A stretch of 64,000 nt of DNA from Planctomycetota bacterium (GCA_026004615.1 BPJM01000005.1:477-64476); one strand, 5' to 3'; positions 2,413 through 59,945 are shown, counted from the first letter of the stretch. Translations and numbers: made by a program. The notes: generated from the sequence alone by a model not told the origin.

Positions 2413-3410
2413 CGCTCCGCCTCCGGGCTGTTGCCGCCGGGCGGAGCGGCGAGCTGGTCCGGGCCCGTGGCCAGCTGGCGTGCCGCGGGCTGCCGTAGCA
2501 GAACCTCCACCTCGTCGAGCCCCTGCAGCGGCACCGCTGGCGCGAGAGTCGCCTCCACCGCGCGCGTGCGCGGGTCGACCTCGACCTCGACCACGGTGCC
2601 GAGGAGCAGTCCGGCGGGCGCGACCTCGCTCCGGGGCGAGACGACCACCCGGTCGCCAGGGCGAGGGGCAGCAGTGCCGTCGGGGCGGAAGCGGAGCGCT
2701 CCCTGCCCGTCGCCACGCGCGATGCCCTCCAGTGGAGGCGGCGCTTCGGGTGCGGGCCCGGTCGCCCTCCCGCCGTCGGGCCCCTCGCCGGCGCGCTCGG
2801 GCGGACAGGCGCCCGGATCGGCGGGCCTCTCGCCGCCGGTCCCCGACGCTCCGCCGGGCGGCTCCAGGATGCGGGCGCGGACGCGGAACGCCGGAGCGGT
2901 GGCGAGCAGCACCTCGGAGCGATCGGGCGCGACGGCGGCCAGCCGGCCGAGCAGCGCGCTGCCGGCAGTGACCGGATCGCCCGGCGCAAGGCCCGCCTCC
3001 AGCCCGGCGTCGATCCGCAGCCGGCCCCCGCGATCCAGCGCCCCGCGGGCGGCACCGGCTGCCGCGGCGGCGCCGCCGAGCACGCGCGCGAGCACCACGT
3101 GCGGCACCGCGCGCGCCGGCACGGCCTCGCGCAGCGCTCCCAGGCGTGCGAGCGCCGCCACCAGCTCGGCGCGCTCCGCCTCGGCGTGCAACAGCTGCGC
3201 GCGCAGATACGCACAGCTTTCGCAGCGAGCCTGCGGACCGGCGTGCTCTGGCTGGCTGCCCGCCGCGGACGACGCCCGCGTGCCGCCCGCCAGCCGCTCC
3301 AGCCATCCCAGCAGTCCCAGCCGCAGCGCGTCCCAGGCCGGGCGCGGGCAGAGCAGCAGCCCCAGCAGCACCCCGAGGGCGAAGGCGTGATGTCTCGTCC
3401 ACCGCCACAT
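2409..3410 (-). CDS. mreC: Rod shape-determining protein MreC.
   Basis: N-terminal TM segment, then a coiled-coil segment, then C-terminal beta domains with GDxV...G motifs (GDPVTAGSALLGRL; GDRVVVSPRSEVAPAGLLLGTVVEV). It is immediately downstream of mreB. Confidence 0.8.
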   Translation of the reverse strand: MWRWTRHHAFALGVLLGLLLCPRPAWDALRLGLLGWLERLAGGTRASSAAGSQPEHAGPQARCESCAYLRAQLLHAEAERAELVAALARLGALREAVPARAVPHVVLARVLGGAAAAAGAARGALDRGGRLRIDAGLEAGLAPGDPVTAGSALLGRLAAVAPDRSEVLLATAPAFRVRARILEPPGGASGTGGERPADPGACPPERAGEGPDGGRATGPAPEAPPPLEGIARGDGQGALRFRPDGTAAPRPGDRVVVSPRSEVAPAGLLLGTVVEVEVDPRTRAVEATLAPAVPLQGLDEVEVLLRQPAARQLATGPDQLAAPPGGNSPEAER

Positions 3411-3458
3411 CGCGCCGCCCCGTCAGCTCACCGGACCGCGGCGCGCGCCGGCCGGGTC

Positions 3459-4511
3459 TCAGCCGAGGTCGTCCTCGCTCTCCAGGAAGGGCGCGTAGCG
3501 ATCGAGGTTTTCCAGGAAGATCGCGGTGCCCCGCGCAACGCAGGTCATCGGATCCTCGGCCAGCCGGACCGGCAGCCCGGTCTCGCGCGCGATGGCGCGG
3601 TCGAGCCCGCGCAGCTGCGAGCTGCCGCCGCACAGCACCAGGCCGTTGTCCACCAGATCGCCCGCCAGCTCCGGACCGGTCCGCTCCAGCACGCTGCGTA
3701 CCGCGGCGCAGATCTCGCCCACCGGTTTGAGCAGCGCCTCGCGGATCTCTTCCGAGGTCACGGTGGTCTGGCGCGGCAGGCCGGTCACCGTGTCCCGGCC
3801 CCGCACGTCCATCTCCAGCTCCTGCTCCAGCGGGGCGCACGAGCCGATCGCGATCTTGATGCGCTCGGCGGTCTGCTCCCCGATGTGGAGGTTGTGGGCG
3901 CGCTTGACGTGCTCGACGATGGCCTCGTCGAAATCATCGCCGGCCACGCGCAGCGACTCCGCACAGACGATCTCGGCCAGCGAGAGGACCGCGATCTCGG
4001 TCGTGCCGCCGCCGATGTCGACGACCATGCTGCCGACCGGCTGGTCCACCGGCAGCCCGGCCCCGATGCCGGCGGCGCGCGGCTCGCTGATCAGATAGAC
4101 CTTGCGTGCTCCGGCGCGCTCGGCCGAGTTGAACACCGCGCGCTTTTCCACCGCCGTGATCCCGCTCGGGACCGCCACCACCACCCGCGGGCGTACTCCC
4201 CACCGCCGGTCGTGGACCTTGCGGATGAAGTAGCTGAGCATCGCCTCGGTGATGTCGAAGTCGGCGATACGGCCCGACTTCATGGGGCGGATGGCCTGGA
4301 TGCCGGGCGGCGTCTTGGCCAGCATCGCCTTGGCGACGGCGCCGACCGCGTTGCCGTTGAGCAGCACCTGGTTGGTGCCCTTGCGCACCGCTACCACCGA
4401 CGGCTCGTTGAGCACGATGCCCTGACCGCTGACGGTGACCAGGGTGTTGGCCGTGCCGAGGTCGATCCCCATGTCGGTGGAGAACAGTCCCAGGAACCAG
4501 TCGAGGATCAT
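3459..4511 (-). CDS. mreB: Rod shape-determining actin homolog MreB (351 aa).
   Basis: From the internal ATG at 4511 the product is MILDWFLGLFSTDMGIDLGTANTLV...VVDIGGGTTEIAVLSL...LCGGSSQLRGLDRAIARETGLPV. This is unmistakably MreB. The upstream 70 codons of ORF 3459..4721 are non-protein-like. Confidence 0.95.
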   Translation of the reverse strand: MILDWFLGLFSTDMGIDLGTANTLVTVSGQGIVLNEPSVVAVRKGTNQVLLNGNAVGAVAKAMLAKTPPGIQAIRPMKSGRIADFDITEAMLSYFIRKVHDRRWGVRPRVVVAVPSGITAVEKRAVFNSAERAGARKVYLISEPRAAGIGAGLPVDQPVGSMVVDIGGGTTEIAVLSLAEIVCAESLRVAGDDFDEAIVEHVKRAHNLHIGEQTAERIKIAIGSCAPLEQELEMDVRGRDTVTGLPRQTTVTSEEIREALLKPVGEICAAVRSVLERTGPELAGDLVDNGLVLCGGSSQLRGLDRAIARETGLPVRLAEDPMTCVARGTAIFLENLDRYAPFLESEDDLG

Positions 4512-4892
4512 GCCGTCGCCAGCCTCGCCCACCGTGCCCGGCGCGGGCCAACCGCCCGCTCCTCTGTCTGTATCGGCGCGCTGCGGCCGCAGGTTCACAG
4601 CCCGGCGGGCGCGCGGTGCGGGGCCGGGCGGGCGGCAGGGCTCACCGCCCGCCGTGCGGGCCGCGAAGGGGGGCGGGACGCTGCCCGCGGGCGCTCGCAC
4701 CCCGCCGCCGCCCGATCGCACAGGCGCGCCGGCGAGCTGCTCGCGGCCGGGCGGTAGCTCGCGGCGAGAGGTCCGCCGATCCGGGCGGGGTGCGTGCGGG
4801 CGCGGGGCAGAAGGGAGCGGCAGCGCGCAAGTGCAGTTCCGGCGCCCGACCGGCCACTCCGCGGGCGCACGTTCCTGGCGGGGCAGCGGGCA

Positions 4893-5132
4893 CTATGTAC
4901 CGGGCTGTCGTTCCTCGGGGCGCAGGTCCGGGTAGCGCTGCTTGTCGAGCTGGAGCGGGGTGATCTGGAACTCGTTGGTCAGCCGGCGCGTCTCGGGATT
5001 CACGTACCAGCCGATCTGGCGCACGCTCAGCCAGATGCCGAGGATGAGCGCGATCGCGGTCACGATCAGCAGCGCCAGCGAGACGGGATCGCTGGGCTGC
5101 TTGTGCAGGATGTCATCGTCTTCGTAGGGCAC
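4893..5132 (-). CDS. Small single-TM membrane protein (79 aa), hypothetical.
   Basis: Protein-like composition and one TM helix (LALLIVTAIALILGIWLSV). Local GC is lower than in the flanking intergenic DNA. It lies between the coiled-coil gene and mreB. Confidence 0.35.
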   Translation of the reverse strand: MPYEDDDILHKQPSDPVSLALLIVTAIALILGIWLSVRQIGWYVNPETRRLTNEFQITPLQLDKQRYPDLRPEERQPGT

Positions 5133-5184
5133 CGGTTCGACCTCCGCCTGCTCCGCGCCCTGCTGGCGCGCCGCGCTGCTCCGC

Positions 5185-6058
5185 TCAGTCCAGCCGCGTG
5201 GCGGCCGTGTCGCCGGCGCGGATCTGCTGGCCGGGGGCGGTGAACAGCACCCGCGCGCCCGAGGAGTCGCGCATGGGCTTGGTCACCACCACCTTGCCGA
5301 TGAAGGTGTCGCGCCGGTAGATCGTGAACTGATAGCCCCGCTCCACGCCCTGATCCTTGCCCACGCTCAGCAGCACACTCGCCGGCTCGGTGCTGGTGTC
5401 GACCCCGGCCACCACGCCGTTGATCGCCGGCACCGGCGGGGGTACCGAGCACGATCTGGTACAGGTCGACGCCGTGCTCGGACTTGGCGGTGTCGATCAT
5501 GAGCTGCAGATCGAGCGCCTTCTGCTTGGCGTCGGCGTAGTCCTTGCGCGCCTGTCCGAGGTCCTTCTCCAGCGCCGTCTTCTGCTGGAGCAGCCGCGCC
5601 ACCTGCGCCTGGGCACGATCGAGGTTGTCCTTGGCGATCTTGAGCTCGCCATCGAGCTGGGTCACGCGCTGCAGGTAGTCGCGGATCTGGTCGTCCTTGG
5701 CCTGCAGGTTGGTGGACACCTCCTTGTGCGTCGCCTGCAGTTGCTCGAAGTCGCTGCGGAGGCGGTTGAACTCGGTGATGCGCTGCTGGGCGCTCAGCTC
5801 CAGTGCCTTGAGCTGGTCCTTGAGGTTGGTGACCAGCGCGTCGAGCTCGCCGATCTTGCGGTCCAGATCGCTGTTGGAACCGCGCAGGGCGGCGATCTGC
5901 GCCTCCTTGGCCTGGACCACCTGCTGGTGGTGCGAGCGGGCGCGCTCGTAGGCCTGGCGCCAGTTGTTCTCGTGATAGCTGAGCGTGGCCTGGGCGCCGA
6001 GGTAGATCAAGCTCAGCACCGTGACGATCACGATGAAGATCCTGCCGAGAAGGCTCAT
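5185..6058 (-). CDS. Protein with N-terminal TM, a long coiled coil and a C-terminal beta-rich domain. It is frameshifted in this assembly at about 5440-5460.
   Basis: ORF 5066..6058 gives MSLLGRIFIVIVTVLSLIYLG followed by a heptad-rich coiled coil. ORF 5185..5433, in another frame, gives a protein-like C-terminal domain (GVVAGVDTSTEPASVLLSVGKDQGVERGYQFTIY...). The two frames meet at a GGGGG/CCCCC run at 5447-5451. One indel there makes a single ~290 aa product. Confidence 0.5.
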
Positions 6059-8141: not shown

Positions 8142-9131
8142 TCACGCTCCGCCTGGCAGCGGCCCGCCGGGCGGCGTGCGCGCCAGCGCGTCGATGATCG
8201 CCTCGAGATCGAGGGTGGGCTGCCAGCCGATCAGTTCGCGGGCCCGGCGCAAATCGGGGCGGCGGCGGGGCATGTCGTCGAAGCCGGGGCCGTAGGCCTC
8301 CGCATACGGCACGTACGCGATCGGAGCGGCGGGGTTGAGGCGCGCGCGCACCCGCTCCGCGAGCTCCCGGATCGTCACCTCCTCGTCGCTGCCGAGGTTC
8401 ACGACCTTGCCCCACGCGGCCTCGCAGCTCAGCAGCGCCTCGAGCCCGCGCACCACGTCTCCGACCCAGGTGAAGCACCGGCTCTGCGTGCCATCGCCAT
8501 ACACGGTGAGCGGGCCGCCGGCGCGCGCCTGCTCGATGAACCGCGGCAGCACCATGCCCCAGCGCCCGCTCTGCCGCGGGCCCACGGTGTTGAACAGCCG
8601 CACCACCACCGCGCGCAGTCCCCGCTCGCGCACCAGCGCCAGGGCCAGAAACTCATCCAGCAGCTTGGAGCAGGCGTATGCCCAGCGCGGCCTGCTCGGC
8701 GGACCCAGCACCAGGTCATCCTCTTCGTGGAAGCGCGCTCCTGCGGCGCGGCCGTACACCTCGCTGCTGGAGGCGAGCACCACCGGCAGCCCGCGGCGGG
8801 CGGCCTCGAACAGCACCACCCGCGTCGGCTCCAGGTTGCGCTCGATGCACTCGGCGGCTCGCTCGACCACCAGGCGCACTCCGACTGCCGCCGCCAGGTG
8901 TACCACCGCGTCTGCCTCGGCGAACAGCTCGCGGACCAGCCGCGGATCGGCCGCGTCGCCCTGGACGAAACGGCCTCCTCGCGCCAGGAAGGCCTGCAGG
9001 TTGGCGCGGCGCCCGGTGGACAGATCGTCCAGCACCGTCACCCGCGTGCCGCCCGCGAGCAGCCGCTCCGCCAGGTGCGAGCCGATGAAGCCCGCGCCGC
9101 CGGTGATCACTGCGTGGCGGTATGGGACCAT
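8142..9131 (-). CDS. NAD-dependent epimerase/dehydratase (SDR family), UDP-glucuronate decarboxylase-like.
   Basis: VITGGAGFIGSHLAERLLAGGTRVTVLDDLSTGRRANL and a YxxxK region (YACSKLL). I prefer the ATG at 9131 (MVPYRH...) because it does not overlap the upstream lipoprotein gene. The ORF as listed starts at 9206. Confidence 0.8.
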   Translation of the reverse strand: MVPYRHAVITGGAGFIGSHLAERLLAGGTRVTVLDDLSTGRRANLQAFLARGGRFVQGDAADPRLVRELFAEADAVVHLAAAVGVRLVVERAAECIERNLEPTRVVLFEAARRGLPVVLASSSEVYGRAAGARFHEEDDLVLGPPSRPRWAYACSKLLDEFLALALVRERGLRAVVVRLFNTVGPRQSGRWGMVLPRFIEQARAGGPLTVYGDGTQSRCFTWVGDVVRGLEALLSCEAAWGKVVNLGSDEEVTIRELAERVRARLNPAAPIAYVPYAEAYGPGFDDMPRRRPDLRRARELIGWQPTLDLEAIIDALARTPPGGPLPGGA

Positions 9132-9145
9132 GCAGCCACGGGGCG

Positions 9146-10405
9146 TCACTTCGCGCGCAGCGCGCGGGCGAGCGCCTCGGCGTGGGCGCGCGGCAGGATG
9201 AACCACTGATAGCCGCGCGCCTCGCCGACGTAGGCGGCACGCTCCGGGTCATCGGGCGAGCGCGCCATGCGCAGCTTCTCGCTGGGGTGCTGCGCGGCGC
9301 TGATCGCCCAGATGGTCGCGCGGCTGCCGTCGGCCAGCCGCACCAAAATCTCGCGCGAGCGCAGCAGGCCCGGCCAGCCCGGCGGGTGCAGCGTGTCGTC
9401 CTCGCGCGTGCGCACGCCCTCGATCGTCCAGCCCAGCTCGCGCGCCGCCTCGCGCAGCCGATCGAAGGCGAGGTCGAAGGCGGCCGCATCGGGTTCGATC
9501 GGCAGGGCTCGCACCGGGCTGGCCGCTTGCTCTTCACCGGTGCCGCCGCTGGTGGCGGGCGGCGCCGCGGCAGGTGCAGGGGGCGGGGCGGCGGATTCGC
9601 TGCTCGGGGGCGGCGGTGCCGGCGCGGGCGCGCCGTCCGTCCGGGCGGCGCCTGCTTCTTCGAGCTTGTGCACCAGCTGCTCGAGCCGCTCGATCTGTTC
9701 GCGCAGCCGGCGGCGGTCCTCCTGCTCGGGGGGGAAGTGCGCGGCGAGGCGACCGTCCAGCTCCTGGAGCCGCTCGATGGTCTCCAGCAGTTCGCGTCGC
9801 TTCTGCGTCAGCACCGGGTCACCGCCGGCGGCGGCCGGAGCAGGGCTCGCAGGGGCGCGGGTGAGGGTGGAAGACGGCGCTGGTCCGCTCGCCGGGGTGG
9901 CGAAACCCGCGAGGGCGGGCGCGCCGGCCGGCTGCAGCACCACCGCCAGGTCGGCCAGCCGCAGCTCCGCCGGCTCGAAGTCGCGCGATTCCGGGCGATA
10001 GCCTGCCTTGACCGCCTGCAACCGGAGCCGATCGTGCTTGCCGATCTCCGCCTCGCCGATCAACCGTCCGATGCCTTCGGGCGAACTCCGCTCGGCATAG
10101 CCGAGCTGCACCGGCTCGGCCTCCGGCTCGCCGCCTTGCGCGGCGGGCGGCGGTACCGCGTACAGGGTCAGCACCACCCCGTCGATGGGGATGGGCACCG
10201 GACGGCGCGCGCTCTCGCGCTCGTCGTGGAACCAGATGCCGGGCCTGTCATCCGGCTCGGTCGGCTCGGTGCAGATCGCGCTCACCGAGTAGCTGATCCG
10301 CTGCGTCGAGCTGCAGCCCGCCGCGGCCGCGCCCCACAGCGCCGCCAGTGCTGCAACCGCTGCCGCACCCCCGCGGGCGGGGCGCCCGTTGCTTGTCCCT
10401 CTCAT
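9146..10405 (-). CDS. Lipoprotein (419 aa) with a coiled-coil middle and a conserved-looking C-terminal domain, hypothetical.
   Basis: This is the real 3' part of the long alternate-frame ORF 9146..12319. It has a signal peptide with a lipobox (LWGAAAAGC|SST), a coiled coil (LETIERLQELDGRL...LEQLVHKLEE) and a Pro/Ala-rich linker. It starts 6 nt after the carB stop. Confidence 0.55.
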   Translation of the reverse strand: MRGTSNGRPARGGAAAVAALAALWGAAAAGCSSTQRISYSVSAICTEPTEPDDRPGIWFHDERESARRPVPIPIDGVVLTLYAVPPPAAQGGEPEAEPVQLGYAERSSPEGIGRLIGEAEIGKHDRLRLQAVKAGYRPESRDFEPAELRLADLAVVLQPAGAPALAGFATPASGPAPSSTLTRAPASPAPAAAGGDPVLTQKRRELLETIERLQELDGRLAAHFPPEQEDRRRLREQIERLEQLVHKLEEAGAARTDGAPAPAPPPPSSESAAPPPAPAAAPPATSGGTGEEQAASPVRALPIEPDAAAFDLAFDRLREAARELGWTIEGVRTREDDTLHPPGWPGLLRSREILVRLADGSRATIWAISAAQHPSEKLRMARSPDDPERAAYVGEARGYQWFILPRAHAEALARALRAK

Positions 10406-10410
10406 GCCGT

Positions 10411-13809
<3,399 letters not shown>

Positions 13810-22953: not shown

Positions 22954-26296
<3,343 letters not shown>

Positions 26297-52663: not shown

Positions 52664-54757
52664 GTGGGCGGCGCGCGGCGCTCGTCAGGTTCGGGGCGGC
52701 TGCGATTCGCCGAGCCCGGCACCGTCACACCGCCCTGGCACGTGCGCGCAAGCCATATGCTCGCCGAGGCGGGGCAGCGGGTGTTGCTGGCAGCGCAGGC
52801 GCGGCGCCGGGGCCTGGCGTGGGCGGCGATCGTCCTGCTGCTGTCGGGGCTGCTGGCCGCCGACGCGTACCTGCTCCTGCAGGACGCGCACATCGCGCGG
52901 CGGCTGGAGGCCGCAGCGCGCCGCCGGCTGGGCTGCGAGGTCGTGCTCGAGGGCCTGGAGCTGTCGCTCGGGGGCACGGGCAGCGTGGCAGCGGCGTCGC
53001 TGGTGCTCGCGCCGCCGCGCTCAGGCGCCAGACCGACGGTGCTGCGCGCTGCCCGGGTGCGGTTCACGCACGCACCGCTGGCCCTGCTGCGCGGGAGCCT
53101 GCGCCTGGAGGCGGTGCGCGTCGCGGAGGTGCAGATCACGGTCGATGCACCGCTGGTGTTGCTGGAGGCGGTGCAGGTATTGTGGCGCGCGCTGGGCGCG
53201 GAGACCTCGGGCGAGGACGGCTTCAGCCTCGAGGTCGCGCGCCTGGTGTTCGCCCCGGCTGCCGAGGACGGACTCGGGGGGCAAGGGCCGGTCGCGGAGC
53301 CGGCTCCGGCCTCCGGCCGCGGCGCCGCCGGGCAGCTGCCCGCCGCGGTGGTGCTCGAAGGGGTCGAGGTCCGGCCGGCCGGCCGGGGCGCCGCCGCGCT
53401 CCGCTTCCGGGCGCGCTACCGTGCGGCGGCGATGGAGACGCTCGGTCTGGAGGGCACGATCGACTTCGAGACCCAGACCGCGCGGCTGGACGTGCGCGCC
53501 TCCAACCTGCCGGTGCATTCGCCGGCACTCGCCGCACTGGCCCCGGCGCTGGCGCCCTTGATCGCGGCGCTGGGGGCGCACGGGCCGGTCGATCTCGACC
53601 TCGACGTCGATTACCCGTGGCAGGCACCCGCCGCTGCCGAGGTCGCGGGCACGATCGAGTGTTATGCGCTGGCGCTGGAGCCGCCGCTGCTCGCAGCTGC
53701 GGTCACCAACGTCGCCGGTCAGCTGCGGCTGGAGGGCCGGCGGCTGGCGGTGACGGGGCTGCGCGGGGTGTACGGCGGCGGCGTGATCCGGGTGCGGGGC
53801 GAGCTCGGCGACCTGGTCACGGGCAGCGGGGTGCGCCTCGACGTGACGGCGACGCGGCTGCAGCTCGAGGCGCTGGCCGGGCTGAAGCTCGGCCCCTGGG
53901 CGCGGGCGCTGGGCGCGCTCCAGCTCGGCGGCCAGGGTGGCGGGCGGCTGAGCCTGGCGAGCGAGCCGGGCGTGCCGCTCGCCAGGGCGCAGTTCGACGG
54001 GGAGTTGCTGCTCGAGCAGGCGCAGGTCCTGGGCGGGGCGCTCGGCAACGTGCACGGTGCGGTGCGTTTCGCGGGGCGGCTGGGGGCCGGCGAGCCGCTG
54101 CGGGGCGCGCTCGTGCTCGACCGGGCACAGCTGGCGGACGACGTCCCGCTGCGCGGGCTCGGCGCCGAGCTCGCCTTCGGGCCGGCGGGTCTGGTGCTGG
54201 AGCGCGGCAGCGGGCGGCTCGCCGGGGGGACGATCCGGTTCGCAGCCGAGGTACGACCGGCGGCGGCGAAGCCCGCGGTGCGGGTGGAGCTCGAGGCGGA
54301 GGGGGTGGACGCGCTGCCGGTGTTGCGCGCGCTCGGGATCGAGACGCGGCTGGAGGCCATGCGGCTCCGCGGCGAGCTGCGCTATCGGGGGGGCGGCTCC
54401 CAAGAGCCCGGCCTGGCCGTCGAGGTGCGGTTCGGCGGGCTCGAGCTGGGCGAGCTGCCCCCCCTCCGGCCGCTGGTCGAGCTGTTGCAGGAAGCGGGGG
54501 TGGCGGCGACGCGGTTCGAGCGCGGGACCGCGCAGCTCGCTCTCGGCGCCTTCGATCCCGAGCCGCTAGGTGGGTATGCCCTGCGCCTGAGTCTGTTCTC
54601 CGAGCCCTATGACCTCGGACTCGCCGCACGCCTGCGTCCCGGGGGGCGCCTGGAGGGGACCGCCACCGCGCTCCGCCGAGACGCAGGCCGCGCCGAGCGC
54701 TACCACATCGCCGGCACCCTGGCGCACCCGCTGTTCACCAGCCCCTTCGAACCCTGA
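52664..54757 (+). CDS. AsmA/TamB-like large envelope protein (N-terminal TM anchor plus a long beta-rich region).
   Basis: TM: LAWAAIVLLLSGLLAADAYLLL. Repetitive beta-strand-like segments follow (LEGLELSLGG; LRLEAVRV; LEGRRLAVTGLRGVYGGGVIRVRGEL...). The true start may be the Met at about 52757. Confidence 0.5.
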   Translation: MGGARRSSGSGRLRFAEPGTVTPPWHVRASHMLAEAGQRVLLAAQARRRGLAWAAIVLLLSGLLAADAYLLLQDAHIARRLEAAARRRLGCEVVLEGLELSLGGTGSVAAASLVLAPPRSGARPTVLRAARVRFTHAPLALLRGSLRLEAVRVAEVQITVDAPLVLLEAVQVLWRALGAETSGEDGFSLEVARLVFAPAAEDGLGGQGPVAEPAPASGRGAAGQLPAAVVLEGVEVRPAGRGAAALRFRARYRAAAMETLGLEGTIDFETQTARLDVRASNLPVHSPALAALAPALAPLIAALGAHGPVDLDLDVDYPWQAPAAAEVAGTIECYALALEPPLLAAAVTNVAGQLRLEGRRLAVTGLRGVYGGGVIRVRGELGDLVTGSGVRLDVTATRLQLEALAGLKLGPWARALGALQLGGQGGGRLSLASEPGVPLARAQFDGELLLEQAQVLGGALGNVHGAVRFAGRLGAGEPLRGALVLDRAQLADDVPLRGLGAELAFGPAGLVLERGSGRLAGGTIRFAAEVRPAAAKPAVRVELEAEGVDALPVLRALGIETRLEAMRLRGELRYRGGGSQEPGLAVEVRFGGLELGELPPLRPLVELLQEAGVAATRFERGTAQLALGAFDPEPLGGYALRLSLFSEPYDLGLAARLRPGGRLEGTATALRRDAGRAERYHIAGTLAHPLFTSPFEP

Positions 54758-54795: not shown

Positions 54796-56336
54796 TCAGT
54801 AGGTGCGTGCCGCGTCGAGCACGGCGCGGGTGGTGAACGTCTGGGGATCGACGAGCACGCCGATCGTGCCGACGAAAGCGTCGGGTCCCTGGAAGTCGCG
54901 CCCGGGCAGTCCGGGGCGCAGTGCGAGCACCGAGGCGTTGGGACCGAAGGTGTCCGCGGTCTCGTTGCCGCGGCTGAGCCGGTGCTGGCGGCGGAAGACC
55001 GGGGTGCGGCCACGGCGGGCATCGAACACATTCAGCGTCGAGTCGTTGAACGAGACGGCGAGCAGCCGCCGGCCGCCGTCGTTGCTGTAGGCGAGCGCAC
55101 TGGTGAAGCGGCCCGTCGGCGGTTTGTCCGGGTTGGCGAACGGGATCGTGATCGGGTTGGCGACGCCGTTGAGGATCGCCCCGGTGAGGTCGGCCGGGGC
55201 CTGGATCGTGCCGTCGAGCACCAGGTCGAGCTCGAGCAGCGACACGCGGAAGATCTCCGCCAGTCCGAAACCGAAGTCGCCGCGGCCCACCACCGCCTCC
55301 AGGCCGTCCGGCCGCACCGCGGCCGCATGGCGCGCCGCGGCCGGCCCGAAGGGGAAGAACGCGACCAGCTGCGCCTTGTTCGGGTCGATCACCTCGAGGA
55401 AGGCGTGGTCGGCCTCGGGGGGCGAGGCGCCGAAGAGCACCCGCCCGGCGCCGCTCGTCGTGACGTACAGCACCGGGCGGCCGTCCGGGGTGCGGGCGGC
55501 GCGCAGCCCGGTGACGTTGAACCCGCGGGTGAAGACCACGTGAGCCGGCTGCGGCACCCCCGGCTCGAAGCGGGTGTGATCGAGCGGGTCGAGCGCGAAG
55601 CCGAGCACGAGCCCGGGGAAGTTGTCGAGGAAGCTCGCGGAGGGGTCGGCGCTCGACATGAGGTTGGCGCAGCCGACCCAGAGGGTGTCCCCGAGCACCG
55701 CCAGCGCCTGCGCGCCGGGGTCGGTGGGGGCGAAGCTCGGGTCCGCGGTGCCGGTGGAGGTCATGAGTCCACTCGCGGTGAGCTGCAGGCTCGTCAGCTC
55801 GAACTCCGCGCTGGGGCCCGTGCCCGCCAGCGCGTCGAACAGATAGACCTTGTGCTGGCTCTGGCCGGTGAGGCTCCGGCCGGTCGAGGTCGCGAAGCCG
55901 GCCAGCTTGCCGCCACGCCGCTCGGTGTCGATCACAAGTCCGGCGGCTGCGGGTCGGAAAACCGCTCGCATCGAAGGTGCCGATCACGAGGGTCGCGCTC
56001 GAGCGCGGGGGGGCTGTTGGGCGACATCGAGCACGCGCAGTGTCCCGCCCTGCTGCAGGGCGAACAGCAGCTCGGGTGCCGCCGGCGTGGGTCGCGAGTG
56101 CGGTCAGCGAGTCGCCGTCGGCGAAGGCGAACGCATCTTCGGTGACCGTGAGCGCCGGAAACCCACCGGGCTCGGAGCGCGAGCAGCCGGCGAGCGCCAG
56201 CAGCAGGGCGGCCCCCGAGCACCGCGGCGCGCCGCAGCGCGGCGGGCGAGCCCTTCGCCCCGCAGGGGGGCCGGTGCGCGAATGCACCTGGAGGAACGAT
56301 CGGGAGAGATGAATGGGGCGGGTTGCGATGGAACAC
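54796..56336 (-). pseudogene. Lipoprotein with YVTN/beta-propeller-like repeats, disrupted by about 2-3 frameshifts in its first 120 codons. It lies directly downstream of a cobalamin riboswitch.
   Basis: An AGGAGG ribosome-binding site lies 8 nt before the GTG at 56336. The lipoprotein signal is readable only in another frame (RCGAPRCSGAALLLALAGC|SRSEP, ORF from 56287). The sequence passes through two further frames around the C6 run at 56264-56269 and the C7 run at 56007-56013. The long clean frame 54796..55971 has blade-like repeats (DGRPVLYVTTSGAGRVLF; RRLLAVSFNDSTLNVFD). Confidence 0.5.
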
Positions 56337-56439
56337 GGCCAGGACCTCCTTCCCGTCCGCGCGGGTCGAGGGTTGCGGGGATCCGCCGCCGGGCGGCGGG
56401 CCCGTGTGCGGTCGCGGGGAACGGGTCTTCTGGCTTCCG

Positions 56440-56650
56440 GATCGCCCTACTCGCCGCGCCTTCCCGTGTGCCCGCTCCGAGCGGACCGCACAGTGGCCGC
56501 CTGCGGCTTTCGTCCCCGGTCACAGCGGCGGGACCGCGACGGACTCGCACCGTCTTCCCCCGGCTTCCCGGACCGACCGAACCGATTGTCGAGCGCGCCA
56601 TGATAGCGGGGGCTAGCGCCGCATCAAGCCTCTTTTCAAGTGCAGGCGCG
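56440..56650 (-). promoter_or_regulatory. Cobalamin (AdoCbl) riboswitch.
   Basis: Minus-strand RNA reads GGGAAGCCGGGGGAAGAC-GGUGCGAGUCC-GUC-GCGGUCCCGCCGCUGUGACCGGGGACGAAAGCC-GCAGGCG-GCCACUG-...-GGGAAGGCG. That matches the conserved GGUGnnAnUCC, CCCGCnGCUGUGAcCGGGGA, B12-box GCCACUG and 3' GGGAAGGC elements. A GC-rich hairpin follows (CCGCCGCCCGGCGGCGG, about 56395-56420), then AGGAGG and a GTG. Confidence 0.8.
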
Positions 56651-56659
56651 GTGGGTCTC

Positions 56660-57432
56660 TCAGCCGAACAGCACGCAGGGCCGGCCGGTGCGCGGGTGGC
56701 GGATGACCTCCGGGGGGCGACGCCGAAGGCGCGCTCGAGCGGCTCGGGGCGGAGCACCTGCTCGGGGCTGCCCGTGGCGATCAACCGCCCGCTGGCCAGC
56801 AACGCCATGCCGGTCGCGTACTGTGCCGCCAGGTCGAGGTCGTGCGAGGTGGCGAGGATGGCGAGCCCTTGCTCCCGCCGCAGCCGGTCCAGCAGCCCGA
56901 ACAGCGCCACCCGGTGCCGCACGTCGAGGAACGCCGTCGGTTCGTCGAGCAGGAGCAGGCGCGGCTGCTGGCACAGCGCGCGCGCGATCGCGACCCGGCG
57001 CCGCTCGCCGCCGGAGAGCCGATCGAGGGGGCGGTCGGCGAGCGGCTCCAGCTCCAGCGCCGCCAGCGCCGCGCGCGCCTGCGCCACGTCCTCGGGACCC
57101 TCCAGCACCAGCCGGCCCAGGTGCGGCGCCCGACCCATGAGCACGATCTCGCCGACGGTGAAGGCGAAGCCGAACGGCGCCTCCTGCGGCACCACCGCGA
57201 CGGCGCGCGCCAGCTCCCGCCGGCCCCAGGCGCCGAGCGGCCGCCCCTCGAGCGCGATCGTTCCCGCCTGGGGGCGCAGCTCGCCCGCCAGCAGCCGCAG
57301 CAGGGTGGACTTGCCGGCGCCGTTGGCGCCGCCGAGCACCACGAACTCGCCGCGTCCGAGCTGCAGATCGACCCCGTCCAGCACCGGCGGTGCGCCGGGA
57401 TAGCCCAAAGCGCAGTCCGTGCGCCGCGATCA
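56660..57432 (-). pseudogene. ABC transporter ATP-binding protein, BtuD/FepC/FecE family, with two apparent frameshifts.
   Basis: Main frame: LGYPGAPPVLDGVDLQLGRGEFVVLGGANGAGKSTLL...LSGGERRRVAIARAL...LLLLDEPTAFLD...ILATSHDL. The N-terminal [10 protein letters not shown] is in another frame from a GTG at 57432, overlapping the btuC stop. The family-typical C-terminus EVIRHPRTGRPCVLFG* is in a third frame ending at 56660. One extra C in the C6 run at 56712-56717 restores it. The 434-aa ORF 56104..57408 is a read-through artifact. Confidence 0.7.
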
Positions 57433-58516
57433 CGTCTGCGCCTCCGCGAGCGGCACGCGCTGGCGATGCAGCAGCAGCCACAGAAACAGCGGTCCGCCGG
57501 CCAGTGCCGTCACCACCCCGACCGGCAGTTCCTCGGGGGCGAGCGCGCTGCGCGCCGCCGCGTCCGCCAGCACGAGCAGTGCCGCCCCGGCGAGCATGCT
57601 CGCCGGGACCAGCAGCCGGTGATCCGGTCCACACACCAGGCGCAGCAGGTGGGGCACCACCAGCCCGACGAAGCCGACCAGCCCGCTCAGCGCCACGGCG
57701 ACCGCCGTCACCAGCGAGCCGGTGAAGAACAGCGCCACCCGGACCGCGCGCACCGCCACCCCGAGGCTGCCCGCGACCGTCTCGCCCAGGGCTAGCAGGT
57801 TGAGATCGCGGGCCAGCCACTGCAGGACGAGCCCGCCTCCCAGCGTCACCGCGGCCGCCGCTCCCAGGCCGGCCGGCCCCACCGCGACCTGGCCGAGGCT
57901 GCCGGTCAGCCAGGCGAGGATGCGCAGCCGCTCGCTCGGCGGGACCAGGTGGGCGAGGAGCAGGATCCACGACGACAGGATCGCGTTGACGACCACGCCG
58001 AGCAACAGCAGCGTCGCGCCCGCGGTGCCGAAGCTGCGCCGGCCCAGCACGAAGATCAGCGCCGCGACCAGCAGGGCCCCGGCGAACGAACACGCCGGCA
58101 TCCAGAGCGGAGCGGCAACCCCGAGAGCCAGCACCGCGAGCGCCGCCCCGAGCGCGGCGCCGCTGGAGACGCCGAGGAGGAACGGATCGGCCAGCGGGTT
58201 GCGCAGCAGCGCCTGGAAGGCGACGCCGGCGCCGGCGAGGGCGGCGCCCACGATGGCGCCGGCGAGCACGCGCGGCGCGCGGTGGTGGGAGCACGATCTG
58301 GCCTTCCGGGCTGAGTTCGCCCTGGCGGGGCGCGCGCCAGCGCCTCGCCCCCAGCCCGTGTGCCCGCGCGAGGGCGGCGAGCTCGCGCGCGAGCCGGAGC
58401 GGCCCGGCGCCGGGTGCGGGCCCGCTGGTGAGGCCGGCCGCGAGCGCCACCACGAGCAGGGCCGCCAGCGCCCCGGTCCAGCCGAGCCAGCGCCGGCGGG
58501 TCAGCCGCCGCCTCAC
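57430..58516 (-). CDS. FecCD-family ABC permease (BtuC-like), with one frameshift near 58290.
   Basis: ORF 57430..58269 gives [41 protein letters not shown]...[36 protein letters not shown]...[19 protein letters not shown]. The N-terminal TM part ([26 protein letters not shown]...[14 protein letters not shown]) is in the frame of ORF 56660..58516. Confidence 0.75.
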
Positions 58517-59535
58517 CGCGGATCCGCTCCGCTCGGGGGCCGGTGCGCGCTCGCCGCCGCCTCCGGTTCACCGGGGAACGCCTCCGGGTGGAGCGCGCGG
58601 GCGAGCGCCTGCAGACCGTCGACCAGGCGCGGGCCGGGGCGCACCAGCAGCTCGGGTGGCAGCGCATGCACGCGGCCGCTCCGCACCGCCGGCACCCCGC
58701 TCAGGCGCTCCCAGAAGCGCGCGCGGGGCGGCGGCCGCGGTCGCGGCGGTGCCGGGCGGTGCCATGCTGAGCTCGATGACCACCTCCGGCGCCAGCGCCA
58801 CGATCGCCTCCTCGCCGATCTCGGGCCAGCGCCGGCCGCTCGCCTGCAGCACATTGCTTCCGCCTGCGATCTCGAGCAGCGCGCCGAGGAAGGAGCCCGG
58901 TCCGGCGGCAATCGTCGGGTGGCGGTCGACGACGATGAGGGTGCGGGGGTCGCGGCCGACTGGCGACGGCGCGGCGTATCGCCTCGGTGCGCGCGCGCAG
59001 CGTCGCGGCGAGGGGTGCGCGCGCGCAGCTCGGTCTTCTCCCCGAGCAACGTCCCCAGCCGTTCGACGGCGGCGAACAGATCGGGCAGCGCCGTGACCGT
59101 CACCGCCTCGAGCCGCACACCGAGCCGGCGCAGCGCGAGCGCCGGCGCCAGGAGCGTGCCCTCTGCCGGCACGAGCACGAGATCCGGCCGGCACGCGAGC
59201 ACCAGCTCCACGTTGGGGCTGCCGTAGCCGCCCACCCGCGGCAGCGCGCGCGCGGCCGGCGGAAAGTCGCAGTGCGAGGTCACCCCGACCAGCCGCTCGC
59301 CCGCGCCGAGCGCGAACACGATCTCGGTGAGCGAGGGGGCGAGCGAGACCACGCGGCGGGGCGGCGCCGGGCTGCGGGGACGCTGGGGCGCGCTCGCCGC
59401 CGCCGGTGCGGTGGCTGGCCCGCCGGCGCCCTCACAGCCCGGCCCCGCCAGCGCAGCGGCGGTGGCCATCGCGACGCCCAGGCCCACCAGCAGCAGCGGG
59501 CGCGGCACCTGCGGCCGGACGGGCGCGCGCCTCAC
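58513..59535 (-). pseudogene. Periplasmic substrate-binding protein of a TroA/BtuF-like class (cobalamin/siderophore-type), signal peptide present. It is split over two frames, so there are two frameshifts.
   Basis: N-terminus in frame 0: signal peptide, then [33 protein letters not shown]...RPDLVLV. The middle is in the frame of ORF 58568..59194: [34 protein letters not shown]...[20 protein letters not shown]. The C-terminus is back in frame 0: [32 protein letters not shown]. Confidence 0.7.
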
Positions 59536-59945
59536 GGCGCCACCAGCTCCACCTTGATGCGGTCCGGATCCTCGAAATACACCGCGTAGTGGCCGGGACC
59601 GCCGGCGTACGGGTGCCGATCCTCGTACAGCACGGTCACCCCGCGCGCCCGGAGCAGACGCGTCACCTCATCGACCTGCTCGCGCGAGGCGGCGTGCAGG
59701 GCGAGGTGGTTGAGCCCGACCCGCTTGCGATGATAGGGCGGCTCGAGATAGGCCCCTTCGGCCTGCACCAGGACGAGATAGCTCGGGCCGAGCCGCCAGC
59801 TCCGCCCGCCCTCCCAGCGCTGGAACGGCCGGTAGCCGAGCAGCTCCAGCAACCATCCCCAGAACGCCGCCGACCGCTCGAGGTCGGAGACGTACAGCTC
59901 CAGGTGGTGCAGGGTCCCGACCCGTGGCGCCGCGGGCTGCATCAC
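59532..59945 (-). CDS. VOC/glyoxalase-family protein (137 aa).
   Basis: [30 protein letters not shown]...[64 protein letters not shown] overlaps occur at both ends (proC stop and btuF start). Confidence 0.75.

Follow-up and report, generated by a model that had tools for sequence, protein, structure and literature searches.

Clustered frameshifts in a planctomycete btuFCD-riboswitch-lipoprotein locus: probable consensus errors in a putative corrinoid-uptake unit

Background

Two described systems stand closest to the locus analysed here: the BtuFCD importer of Escherichia coli and the BtuG lipoproteins of Bacteroides. E. coli BtuFCD is a type II importer whose three components are, by Pfam domain, the same as those encoded in a 64,000-nucleotide stretch of planctomycete DNA (the window), where the genes lie in the order F-C-D with start/stop overlaps. 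In two respects, however, the window departs from E. coli: its neighbourhood has no TonB-dependent BtuB, and its riboswitch follows btuD and appears to control a separate lipoprotein gene rather than the transporter. BtuG has been reported to be exclusive to the Bacteroidetes and to work with BtuB (PMC6143338). The window lipoprotein resembles Bacteroides BtuG (BtuG2, PDB 3DSM) in that it lies in a putative B12 transport locus and is tied to a B12 riboswitch, and structure prediction suggests that it may likewise be a seven-bladed β-propeller; it differs in having no detectable sequence similarity to BtuG, and its B12 binding is putative.

The four protein-coding genes of the window locus are also interrupted by frameshifts, for which there are two kinds of precedent. 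As in the pseudogenised nutrient-uptake loci of reducing genomes, several frameshifts fall in functionally linked genes beside intact neighbours; unlike those loci, the locus in the window has neither nonsense mutations nor deletions nor insertion elements, its divergence is not raised, and its indels are gains of bases where losses would be expected. The second precedent is the indel-truncated gene of long-read genome and metagenome assemblies, of the kind exposed by IDEEL-type checks. Here too single-base indels in G/C-rich runs and repeats split the ORFs of the locus while the orthologues are full-length. Such truncations are most severe where coverage is low and polishing has been omitted. 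What distinguishes the locus from the usual long-read assembly indels is that the events are concentrated in one 3-kb stretch and are almost all insertions. For metaFlye and HiFi assemblies, frameshift errors have been discussed previously (PMC13087279).

Organization of the locus

On the minus strand, the locus consists of btuF, btuC, btuD, a cobalamin riboswitch, and the lipoprotein gene, in that order (Table 1). Its Pfam set, Peripla_BP_2, FecCD, and ABC_tran, is typical of a BtuFCD-type importer in one operon, the F-C-D gene order is syntenic with an intact locus (L001), and the GTG start of btuD overlaps the btuC stop (GTGA). In frameshift-aware alignments, 189 of 312 positions of btuF are identical to the 309-aa L001 BtuF when three shifts are allowed; the corresponding values are 233/349 for btuC (against a 349-aa BtuC) and 168/258 for btuD (against a 270-aa BtuD). 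A first-pass annotation, made from the window sequence alone, had named a lipoprotein, a B12 riboswitch, and a transporter with BtuF-, BtuC-, and BtuD-like components, and these identities were right. That the transporter would carry a corrinoid is suggested solely by the adjoining cobalamin riboswitch; siderophores and haem are other substrates of transporters from the same Pfam families.

The orthologous riboswitches of L001 and of a further lineage, L005, score 75.9 and 81.1 bits, respectively, and the core of the window riboswitch aligns with that of L001. The lipoprotein orthologues, which are predicted β-propellers, are 477-486 aa long.

Table 1. Coordinates of the locus, its frame changes, and the two isolated frameshifts elsewhere in the window (a slash marks the point at which the reading frame changes)
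Feature	Position	Strand	Description
btuF-like gene, putative periplasmic corrinoid-binding protein	58513-59535	-	three +1 frame changes; Pfam Peripla_BP_2 in two different frames
btuF frameshift 1	59012-59030	-	+1, at about 59018; (GC)n/C4 context; ELRA/APLAATLR
btuF frameshift 2	58945-58949	-	+1; C5 run on minus strand; SRPR/PRTLIVVD
btuF frameshift 3	58725-58745	-	+1, back to original frame; C4/(GC)n context; AAAAP/ARFWERL
btuC-like gene, FecCD-family permease	57430-58516	-	one, possibly two frame changes; Pfam FecCD E = 7.8e-72
btuC frameshift	58287-58289	-	+1; C3 run; manual reading breaks after GQIVL
btuD-like gene, ABC ATPase	56660-57433	-	two frame changes; Pfam ABC_tran E = 4e-35
btuD frameshift 1	57404-57409	-	+1; TTTGGG context; HGLRF/GYPGAPPVL
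btuD frameshift 2	56712-56717	-	-1 or +2; C6 run; AFGV/PPEVIRHPRTGRPCVLFG, then stop
Cobalamin riboswitch aptamer	56424-56559	-	downstream of btuD, upstream of lipoprotein gene; RF00174, 73.7 bits (gathering score 31.5)
Ribosome-binding site GGGAAGGAGG and GTG 56336, probable true lipoprotein start	56336-56352	-	aligns with GGAAAGGAG site and ATG start of L001 orthologue
Lipoprotein gene, riboswitch-controlled	54796-56336	-	lipobox LAGC; first 390 nt hold four or five +1 frame changes
Lipoprotein frameshift 0 (tentative)	56212-56216	-	+1; G5 run inside signal peptide; yields ...LRRAAVLGAALLLALAGCS
Lipoprotein frameshift 1	56089-56091	-	+1; C3 run; seen with four homologues
Lipoprotein frameshift 2	56007-56013	-	+1; C7 run; VAQQPP/ALERD
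Lipoprotein frameshift 3	55990-55992	-	+1; C3 run; ALERD/LVIGTFDASGFPT
Lipoprotein frameshift 4	55951-55953	-	+1; C3 run; GFPT/AAAGLVID
Isolated frameshift, conserved 289-aa coiled-coil protein gene	5438-5442	-	+1; C5 run; outside locus
Isolated frameshift, Ser/Thr kinase gene	23220-23227	+	+1; G8 run; outside locus; splits off conserved N-terminal extension

Frame changes within the locus

To locate the frame changes, a frameshift-aware dynamic programme was used to align the window DNA with the four intact orthologous proteins of L001, a syntenic metagenome locus, and with three further homologues of the lipoprotein, after which each junction was re-read by hand. Between 55950 and 59018 this gives 10-12 frame changes: three in btuF, one or two in btuC, two in btuD, and four or five in the lipoprotein gene. 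The first-pass figure of at least 7 is thus borne out and exceeded, and the intact L001 orthologues and the homologues confirm frame changes in all four genes. Both shifts that had been predicted in btuD (near 57400 and at the C6 run at 56712) were found, as was that near 58290 in btuC. In btuF, where two shifts had been inferred, the return to the original frame holds but the alignment requires three, with a 70-nt stretch read in the third frame; near the third of these shifts, the frame path given by third-codon-position GC also switches, at 58715/58716. The same kind of path switches at 58288/58289 in btuC. For this gene the dynamic programme offers an alternative in which two events, each +2, lie at 58349 and 58302, and the one-event and two-event readings score almost equally against the single orthologue.

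For the lipoprotein, two or three shifts had been proposed; that at the C7 run at 56007 stands, and the number has risen to four or five. The C6 run near 56264, where a shift had been placed, does not call for one. A start at GTG 56287 would give a signal peptide with an acceptable lipobox, and the L001 alignment instead favours GTG 56336 with a single shift in the G5 run at 56212-56216. The latter shift, tentative as it is, becomes necessary with GTG 56336 as the start codon, which, like the ribosome-binding site before it, lines up with its counterpart in L001.

Some of these sites are homopolymers (C7, C6, C5) able to support slippage, and programmed recoding, by ribosomal frameshifting or by transcriptional slippage, could in principle restore the proteins. 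However, it would be required at ten to twelve sites in four genes, most of the sites having no slippery motif, and would have to produce four consecutive +1 shifts in 140 nt, whereas the orthologues are unshifted. The number and context of the sites effectively refute programmed frameshifting, whose probability is negligible.

Distribution and character of the events

Event density is 3.26/kb inside 55950-59018 versus 0.033/kb outside, a difference of about 100-fold, and the clustering within the interval that the first-pass annotation had marked has a binomial P = 2.9e-10. Over 45.7-64 kb, every gene neighbouring the locus is in a single frame with respect to its L001 orthologue; the immediate neighbours, a glyoxalase-like gene (59532-59945), proC, and a 605-aa gene (52928-54745), are intact. 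When the coding frame was surveyed across the whole window by third-codon-position GC, two further candidates emerged, both of which were confirmed by homology (Table 1). The fused reading across 5438-5442 has 18 homologues at 100% coverage, of which 17 are 289 aa long and the other 290 aa. The frameshifts had been described as confined to the locus: the strong concentration holds, but strict confinement does not. Isolated events elsewhere in the window amount to about 3 per 100 kb. A rate of similar magnitude, roughly 4 indels per 100 kbp, has been reported for long-read metagenome assemblies of ONT mock-community reads (PMC13087279).

One base is added in nine of the ten secure events of the cluster (P = 0.011 versus an even split) and in 11 of 12 across the window (P = 0.003). 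Every secure event can be assigned to a G/C-rich run or repeat, the shortest being TTTGGG, C3, and (GC)n/C4 and the longest C7 and G8. Four events of the lipoprotein gene crowd into 140 nt; no event falls in the last 1150 nt of that gene or in the first 517 nt of btuF, and the whole cluster falls in the inner 65% of the locus (range test marginal, P = 0.083).

Once the frames are corrected, the locus genes contain no detected in-frame stops, large deletions, or insertion elements. Their identity to the L001 orthologues is 61-67%, versus 41-74% for flanking genes, and third-position GC in the corrected frames is above 0.9. Tests of the locus for marks of relaxed selection (excess divergence, nonsense codons, deletions, mobile elements) thus found none of them. 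(It should be noted that the lack of nonsense codons is weak evidence against decay, because only 1.5-2.4% of substitutions create a stop in GC-rich codons; the calculated probability of zero stops is 0.23-0.65 for 30-100 substitutions.)

These observations bear on genuine pseudogenisation, which would have been very recent: corrinoid import would have become unneeded, and real single-base insertions would have entered btuF, btuC, btuD, and the lipoprotein gene, leaving the aptamer intact. Such decay would account for the extreme concentration of events, for damage to all four functionally linked genes beside intact immediate neighbours, and for a cluster that lies wholly within one functionally coherent locus, as loss of a dispensable pathway would give; it also accords with an aptamer that still scores as a cobalamin riboswitch. 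Less easily reconciled with decay is the strong +1 bias, since small indels that arise naturally in bacterial genomes are generally biased towards deletion. Moreover, four independent insertions would be needed within the crowded 140 nt, stops, deletions, and mobile elements are absent after frame correction, and divergence from the orthologues is typical of the neighbours. The event-free outer 35% of the locus (marginal, as above), the like frameshifts in two unrelated conserved genes of the window, and an assembly built from unpolished reads at 5.78x also count against it. Decay is consequently judged unlikely, though it retains more weight than any other alternative to assembly error considered here. 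If the frameshifts were real, they would show that a thermophilic lineage of the Planctomycetota had lost corrinoid import very recently, a matter of modest interest.

Assembly history and origin of the frameshifts

The 391-aa ORF at 54796-55971 is 100% identical to KatS3mg102_1740 ('MAG: Planctomycetota bacterium'); the source MAG is KatS3mg102, an uncultivated hot-spring member of the Planctomycetota, class J058. The assembly was made with metaFlye 2.8.3 from PacBio HiFi reads above Q20 only, and its description includes neither short-read sequencing nor a polishing step; according to Table S3, the KatS3mg102 MAG has 17 contigs at a mean coverage of 5.78x, with 74.06% GC and 85.96% completeness (PMC9671151). 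This combination of method and depth makes residual indels likely. At 5.78x, a Poisson distribution of depth over the 64-kb window leaves an expected 1.3 kb or so with no more than 1x depth and about 4.6 kb with no more than 2x, so that a single low-depth stretch of ~3 kb is unsurprising. Ten indels in 3.07 kb correspond to 0.33%, or about Q25, which is within the range for a single read above Q20.

Another conceivable source of such indels is the blending of strains. This metagenome assembly was not strain-resolved, and if two or more strains differed in the locus, the metaFlye consensus might have blended their haplotypes into spurious indels; errors limited to a few kb would be typical of places where strains diverge. 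However, no mosaic is seen in the sequence, and two in-frame haplotypes should not yield an almost pure +1 series. When protein databases were searched for a second record of the population, the only match at 100% was the protein of this very assembly, and the next stood at 65%; with one near-identical protein in the databases, a second strain is undocumented. Strain heterogeneity is accordingly held to be quite improbable, more so than decay.

Of the two possibilities left by the first-pass annotation, locus decay and a locally poor assembly, it is the latter that is favoured, because the source is HiFi-only at 5.78x, nearly all secure events are one-base additions, isolated events occur in two conserved genes, and other signs of decay are absent. 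The locus is most likely ordinary and probably functional, with its 10-12 frameshifts being consensus errors that are absent from the organism's DNA. In this reading, the transporter genes btuF, btuC, and btuD form a unit with the cobalamin riboswitch downstream of them and with the predicted β-propeller lipoprotein gene under its control. Local read depth or quality is probably low at 55950-59018, a stretch most likely backed by only one or two HiFi reads; residual single-base errors, in nearly every case an added base within a G/C-rich run or repeat, would then have persisted without short-read polishing. As a counterpoint to an artefact, several events lie in runs of only three bases, although HiFi errors are expected mainly in longer homopolymers.

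If the frameshifts are artefacts, low-coverage HiFi-only MAGs can carry kilobase stretches at read-level error rates, and such stretches can split every gene of a locus and so mimic decay of a pathway. To conclude that the B12 importer is absent or degraded in the KatS3mg102 MAG would then be wrong. The deposited annotation shortens the lipoprotein to 391 aa, well below the length of its homologues.

The lipoprotein family

The lipoprotein belongs to a tiny family, with only 7 proteins, the window's own included, found among 5.8 billion, and a scan of representative genome contigs found no relatives. The prediction for an orthologue suggests a β-propeller fold, probably with seven blades, and the structural matches are generic WD40/YVTN propellers. 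No sequence homology to BtuG was detected: there is no Pfam hit at E <= 0.01, and sequence hits in the PDB are at chance level only. Neither a BtuB nor a BtuG partner was seen in the neighbourhood of the locus. We tentatively suggest that the lipoprotein could represent a new corrinoid-capture family, a non-homologous analogue of Bacteroides BtuG, although the odds lie somewhat against this. The riboswitch-linked propeller lipoprotein is the part of the locus most worth following up. A cobalamin riboswitch lies directly 5' of the lipoprotein gene in three lineages (the window, L001, and L005), and in two of these three btuFCD adjoins the lipoprotein gene.

Organization of the locus and its frameshifts

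The minus strand of the window (G+C ~74%) carries, in order, proC, a glyoxalase-like gene, the BtuF-, BtuC- and BtuD-like genes of a putative corrinoid importer, a cobalamin riboswitch, and a lipoprotein gene (see table). Intact orthologues are present on a syntenic metagenome contig, L001 (JGI Ga0451564_007236), which contains proC, a 309-aa BtuF, a 349-aa BtuC, a 270-aa BtuD, a gap bearing RF00174, and then the lipoprotein; the synteny extends to the downstream genes. Between btuD and the riboswitch, L001 has ~770 nt without a called gene (8953-9725), whereas the window has only ~100 nt.

To map the frameshifts, a frameshift-aware dynamic programme was used to align the window DNA with the intact proteins of L001; the lipoprotein N-terminus was realigned with three further homologues, and all junctions were also inspected by hand. 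This yields 10-12 events, which confirms and goes beyond the claim of at least 7 in the first-pass annotation. (For btuC, replacing the single event by a pair at 58349 and 58302 leaves the alignment score nearly unchanged.) The Pfam Peripla_BP_2 domain of btuF is spread over two reading frames, and none of the corrected readings contains an in-frame stop codon.

Positions of genes, riboswitch and frameshift events in the window, and of related lipoprotein genes (+1, one added base relative to intact orthologues)
Feature	Position	Strand	Detail
proC	61111-59942	minus
glyoxalase-like gene	59945-59532	minus
btuF	59535-58513	minus	Pfam Peripla_BP_2
btuC	58516-57430	minus	Pfam FecCD
btuD	57433-56660	minus	Pfam ABC_tran
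cobalamin riboswitch RF00174	56559-56424	minus	73.7 bits
lipoprotein gene	54796-56336	minus	last in gene order; 3' end 54796; riboswitch
L001 lipoprotein gene	9725-11461		riboswitch
L005 lipoprotein gene	3123-4742		riboswitch
btuF shift 1	~59018	minus	+1
btuF shift 2	58945-58949	minus	+1, C5
btuF shift 3	~58725-58745	minus	+1
btuC shift	58287-58289	minus	+1
btuD shift 1	57404-57409	minus	+1
btuD shift 2	56712-56717	minus	-1 (or +2), C6 run
lipoprotein shift 1	56089-56091	minus	+1
lipoprotein shift 2	56007-56013	minus	+1, C7
lipoprotein shift 3	55990-55992	minus	+1
lipoprotein shift 4	55951-55953	minus	+1
likely fifth lipoprotein shift	56212-56216	minus	+1, G5 run; required if start is GTG 56336
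isolated frameshift	5438-5442	minus	+1, C5 run; conserved 289-aa coiled-coil protein
isolated frameshift	23220-23227	plus	+1, G8 run; N-terminal extension split from kinase ORF

The start of the lipoprotein is uncertain, the candidates being GTG 56336, which is supported by homology, GTG 56287, or a non-canonical start. In the nucleotide alignment with L001, the window's GGGAAGGAGG site and GTG 56336 lie opposite the L001 ribosome-binding site and ATG; starting at this GTG and shifting frame at the G5 run gives a canonical signal peptide ...LRRAAVLGAALLLALAGCS, and the alignment thus points to a likely fifth +1 event in this gene. Third-position GC is unusually low in the first ~17 codons after GTG 56336 (56336-56285, minus), and ~50-80 nt near these codons are missing from L001.

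Concentration of the events

The coding frame was traced across the window by a Viterbi path on codon-position base composition, third-position GC being ~0.92 in the genome that contains the window. Apart from the shifts in the locus, which it recovers, the path marks just two sites. The shift in the C5 run splits a coiled-coil gene into ORFs 5066-6058 and 5185-5433; removal of one C joins a 206-aa N-terminal piece to an 82-aa ORF, and the resulting 290-aa protein aligns at 100% coverage with 18 homologues, of which 17 have 289 aa and one has 290 aa. At the G8 run, removal of one G links a P/Q-rich N-terminal ORF ('NERNDEGLQFEFDEP...', from ~22954) to the Ser/Thr kinase/FGE-sulfatase-like ORF 23099-26296 (+); therefore, the deposited protein P0026 (1016 aa) begins too late. 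Similar extensions precede the kinase domain in four orthologues, with a conserved N-terminal motif common to P0028 and P0032 and a repeated 'SQSSxTMAEG' motif common to P0029 and P0030.

The shifts had been described as confined to the corrinoid locus. Their concentration there is clear, with 3.26 events per kb within 55950-59018 vs 0.033 per kb outside, a ~100-fold difference (binomial probability of clustering 2.9e-10 for the originally proposed interval, 54796-59535), but the two isolated sites show that confinement is not strict. Flanking genes with L001 orthologues all align in one frame, and the long G/C runs cited as harmless elsewhere do sit in unbroken frame segments.

Consensus error or gene decay

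The 391-aa ORF 54796-55971 is 100% identical to KatS3mg102_1740, labelled 'MAG: Planctomycetota bacterium'. The KatS3mg MAGs, from sample S3 of the Katase hot spring (Kato et al. 2022), were assembled with metaFlye 2.8.3 from one PacBio Sequel II cell, CCS reads > Q20 being retained, and no short-read sequencing or polishing step is described (PMC9671151). KatS3mg102 itself (record BPJM01000001-17; GTDB class J058, order J103) comprises 17 contigs and 3.87 Mb, with 74.06% GC, completeness of 85.96%, and a mean coverage of 5.78x (PMC9671151, Table S3). At this coverage, Poisson depth predicts ~1.3 kb of a 64-kb window at <=1x and ~4.6 kb at <=2x; the rate in the cluster, ten indels in 3.07 kb or 0.33%, is inside the error range of one read > Q20.

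Consensus errors are favoured because the assembly is an unpolished 5.78x HiFi product, the events run in the +1 direction, the same error is found elsewhere, other signs of decay are missing, and the spread is uneven. One-base additions account for 9 of the 10 secure events in the cluster (P = 0.011) and for 11 of the 12 secure events window-wide (P = 0.003), and each secure event is compatible with a position in a G/C-rich run or repeat. The two isolated events, in unrelated conserved genes, give a background of ~3 per 100 kb, comparable in magnitude to a published figure of ~4 indels per 100 kbp for ONT mock-community assemblies (PMC13087279). After frame correction, the locus shows no stops, deletions or mobile elements, its third-position GC stays high, and its identity to orthologues is 61-67% vs 41-74% for the neighbours. 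Four events fall inside 140 nt, and the lipoprotein gene is event-free over its last 1150 nt, as is btuF over its first 517 nt.

Some points tell against consensus errors: several events lie in short runs of three bases, the events avoid the ends of the locus only marginally (P = 0.083), and missing nonsense codons are weak evidence in such GC-rich codons. The alternative, genuine recent decay of the locus, is unlikely. Where the first-pass annotation had offered decay or poor assembly, the latter is better supported: the cluster is quite probably a consensus artefact, and a little more probably so if a strain mixture is counted as a variant of it. Being most likely not a biological feature, it is of low interest.

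A riboswitch-controlled lipoprotein

The lipoprotein that follows the riboswitch merits separate attention. It has no Pfam match and belongs to a very small family, with only six other homologues among 5.8 billion proteins, seven with the window's own; the closest, P0002 on L001 (486 aa), is 65% identical. A cobalamin riboswitch lies directly 5' of the gene in three lineages (73.7 bits in the window, 75.9 in L001, 81.1 in L005). In L005 btuFCD was not found nearby, and in two further loci with homologues, L002 and L004, no cobalamin riboswitch precedes the gene.

Once corrected, BtuF, BtuC and BtuD would make up an ABC importer of type II. Both the window and L001 lack a riboswitch ahead of btuF; on this ground, and from the gene spacing, btuFCD appears to share a transcript with proC and the glyoxalase-like gene. 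The riboswitch is positioned 3' of btuD and directly 5' of the lipoprotein gene's ribosome-binding site; given this position and the established behaviour of the riboswitch class, the lipoprotein would be the B12-repressed element of the locus.

The AlphaFold2 model of P0002 is all-beta (pLDDT 78, pTM 0.83) and finds its closest PDB counterparts among seven-bladed WD40/YVTN propellers (E ~1e-10), which point to a seven-bladed beta-propeller as the predicted fold. At the sequence level, the lipoprotein resembles no solved structure in the PDB. The B12 loci of Bacteroides encode BtuG2 (PDB 3DSM), a lipoprotein that folds as a seven-bladed propeller and is reported to be exclusive to Bacteroidetes (PMC6143338). 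Judged by its context and predicted fold, the Planctomycetota protein may be a non-homologous functional analogue of BtuG in corrinoid capture.

Convergent to and adjoining the lipoprotein gene is a gene at 52928-54745 (+) for a 590-660-aa protein without a Pfam match, with counterparts at 11481-13256 in L001 and 11448-13331 in L002. This neighbour occurs in four of the five loci examined, being absent on the short contig L005; wherever it occurs, a ~150-aa gene and genes for an LplA-like ligase and a Ser/Thr kinase come next, and the block is conserved across all four.
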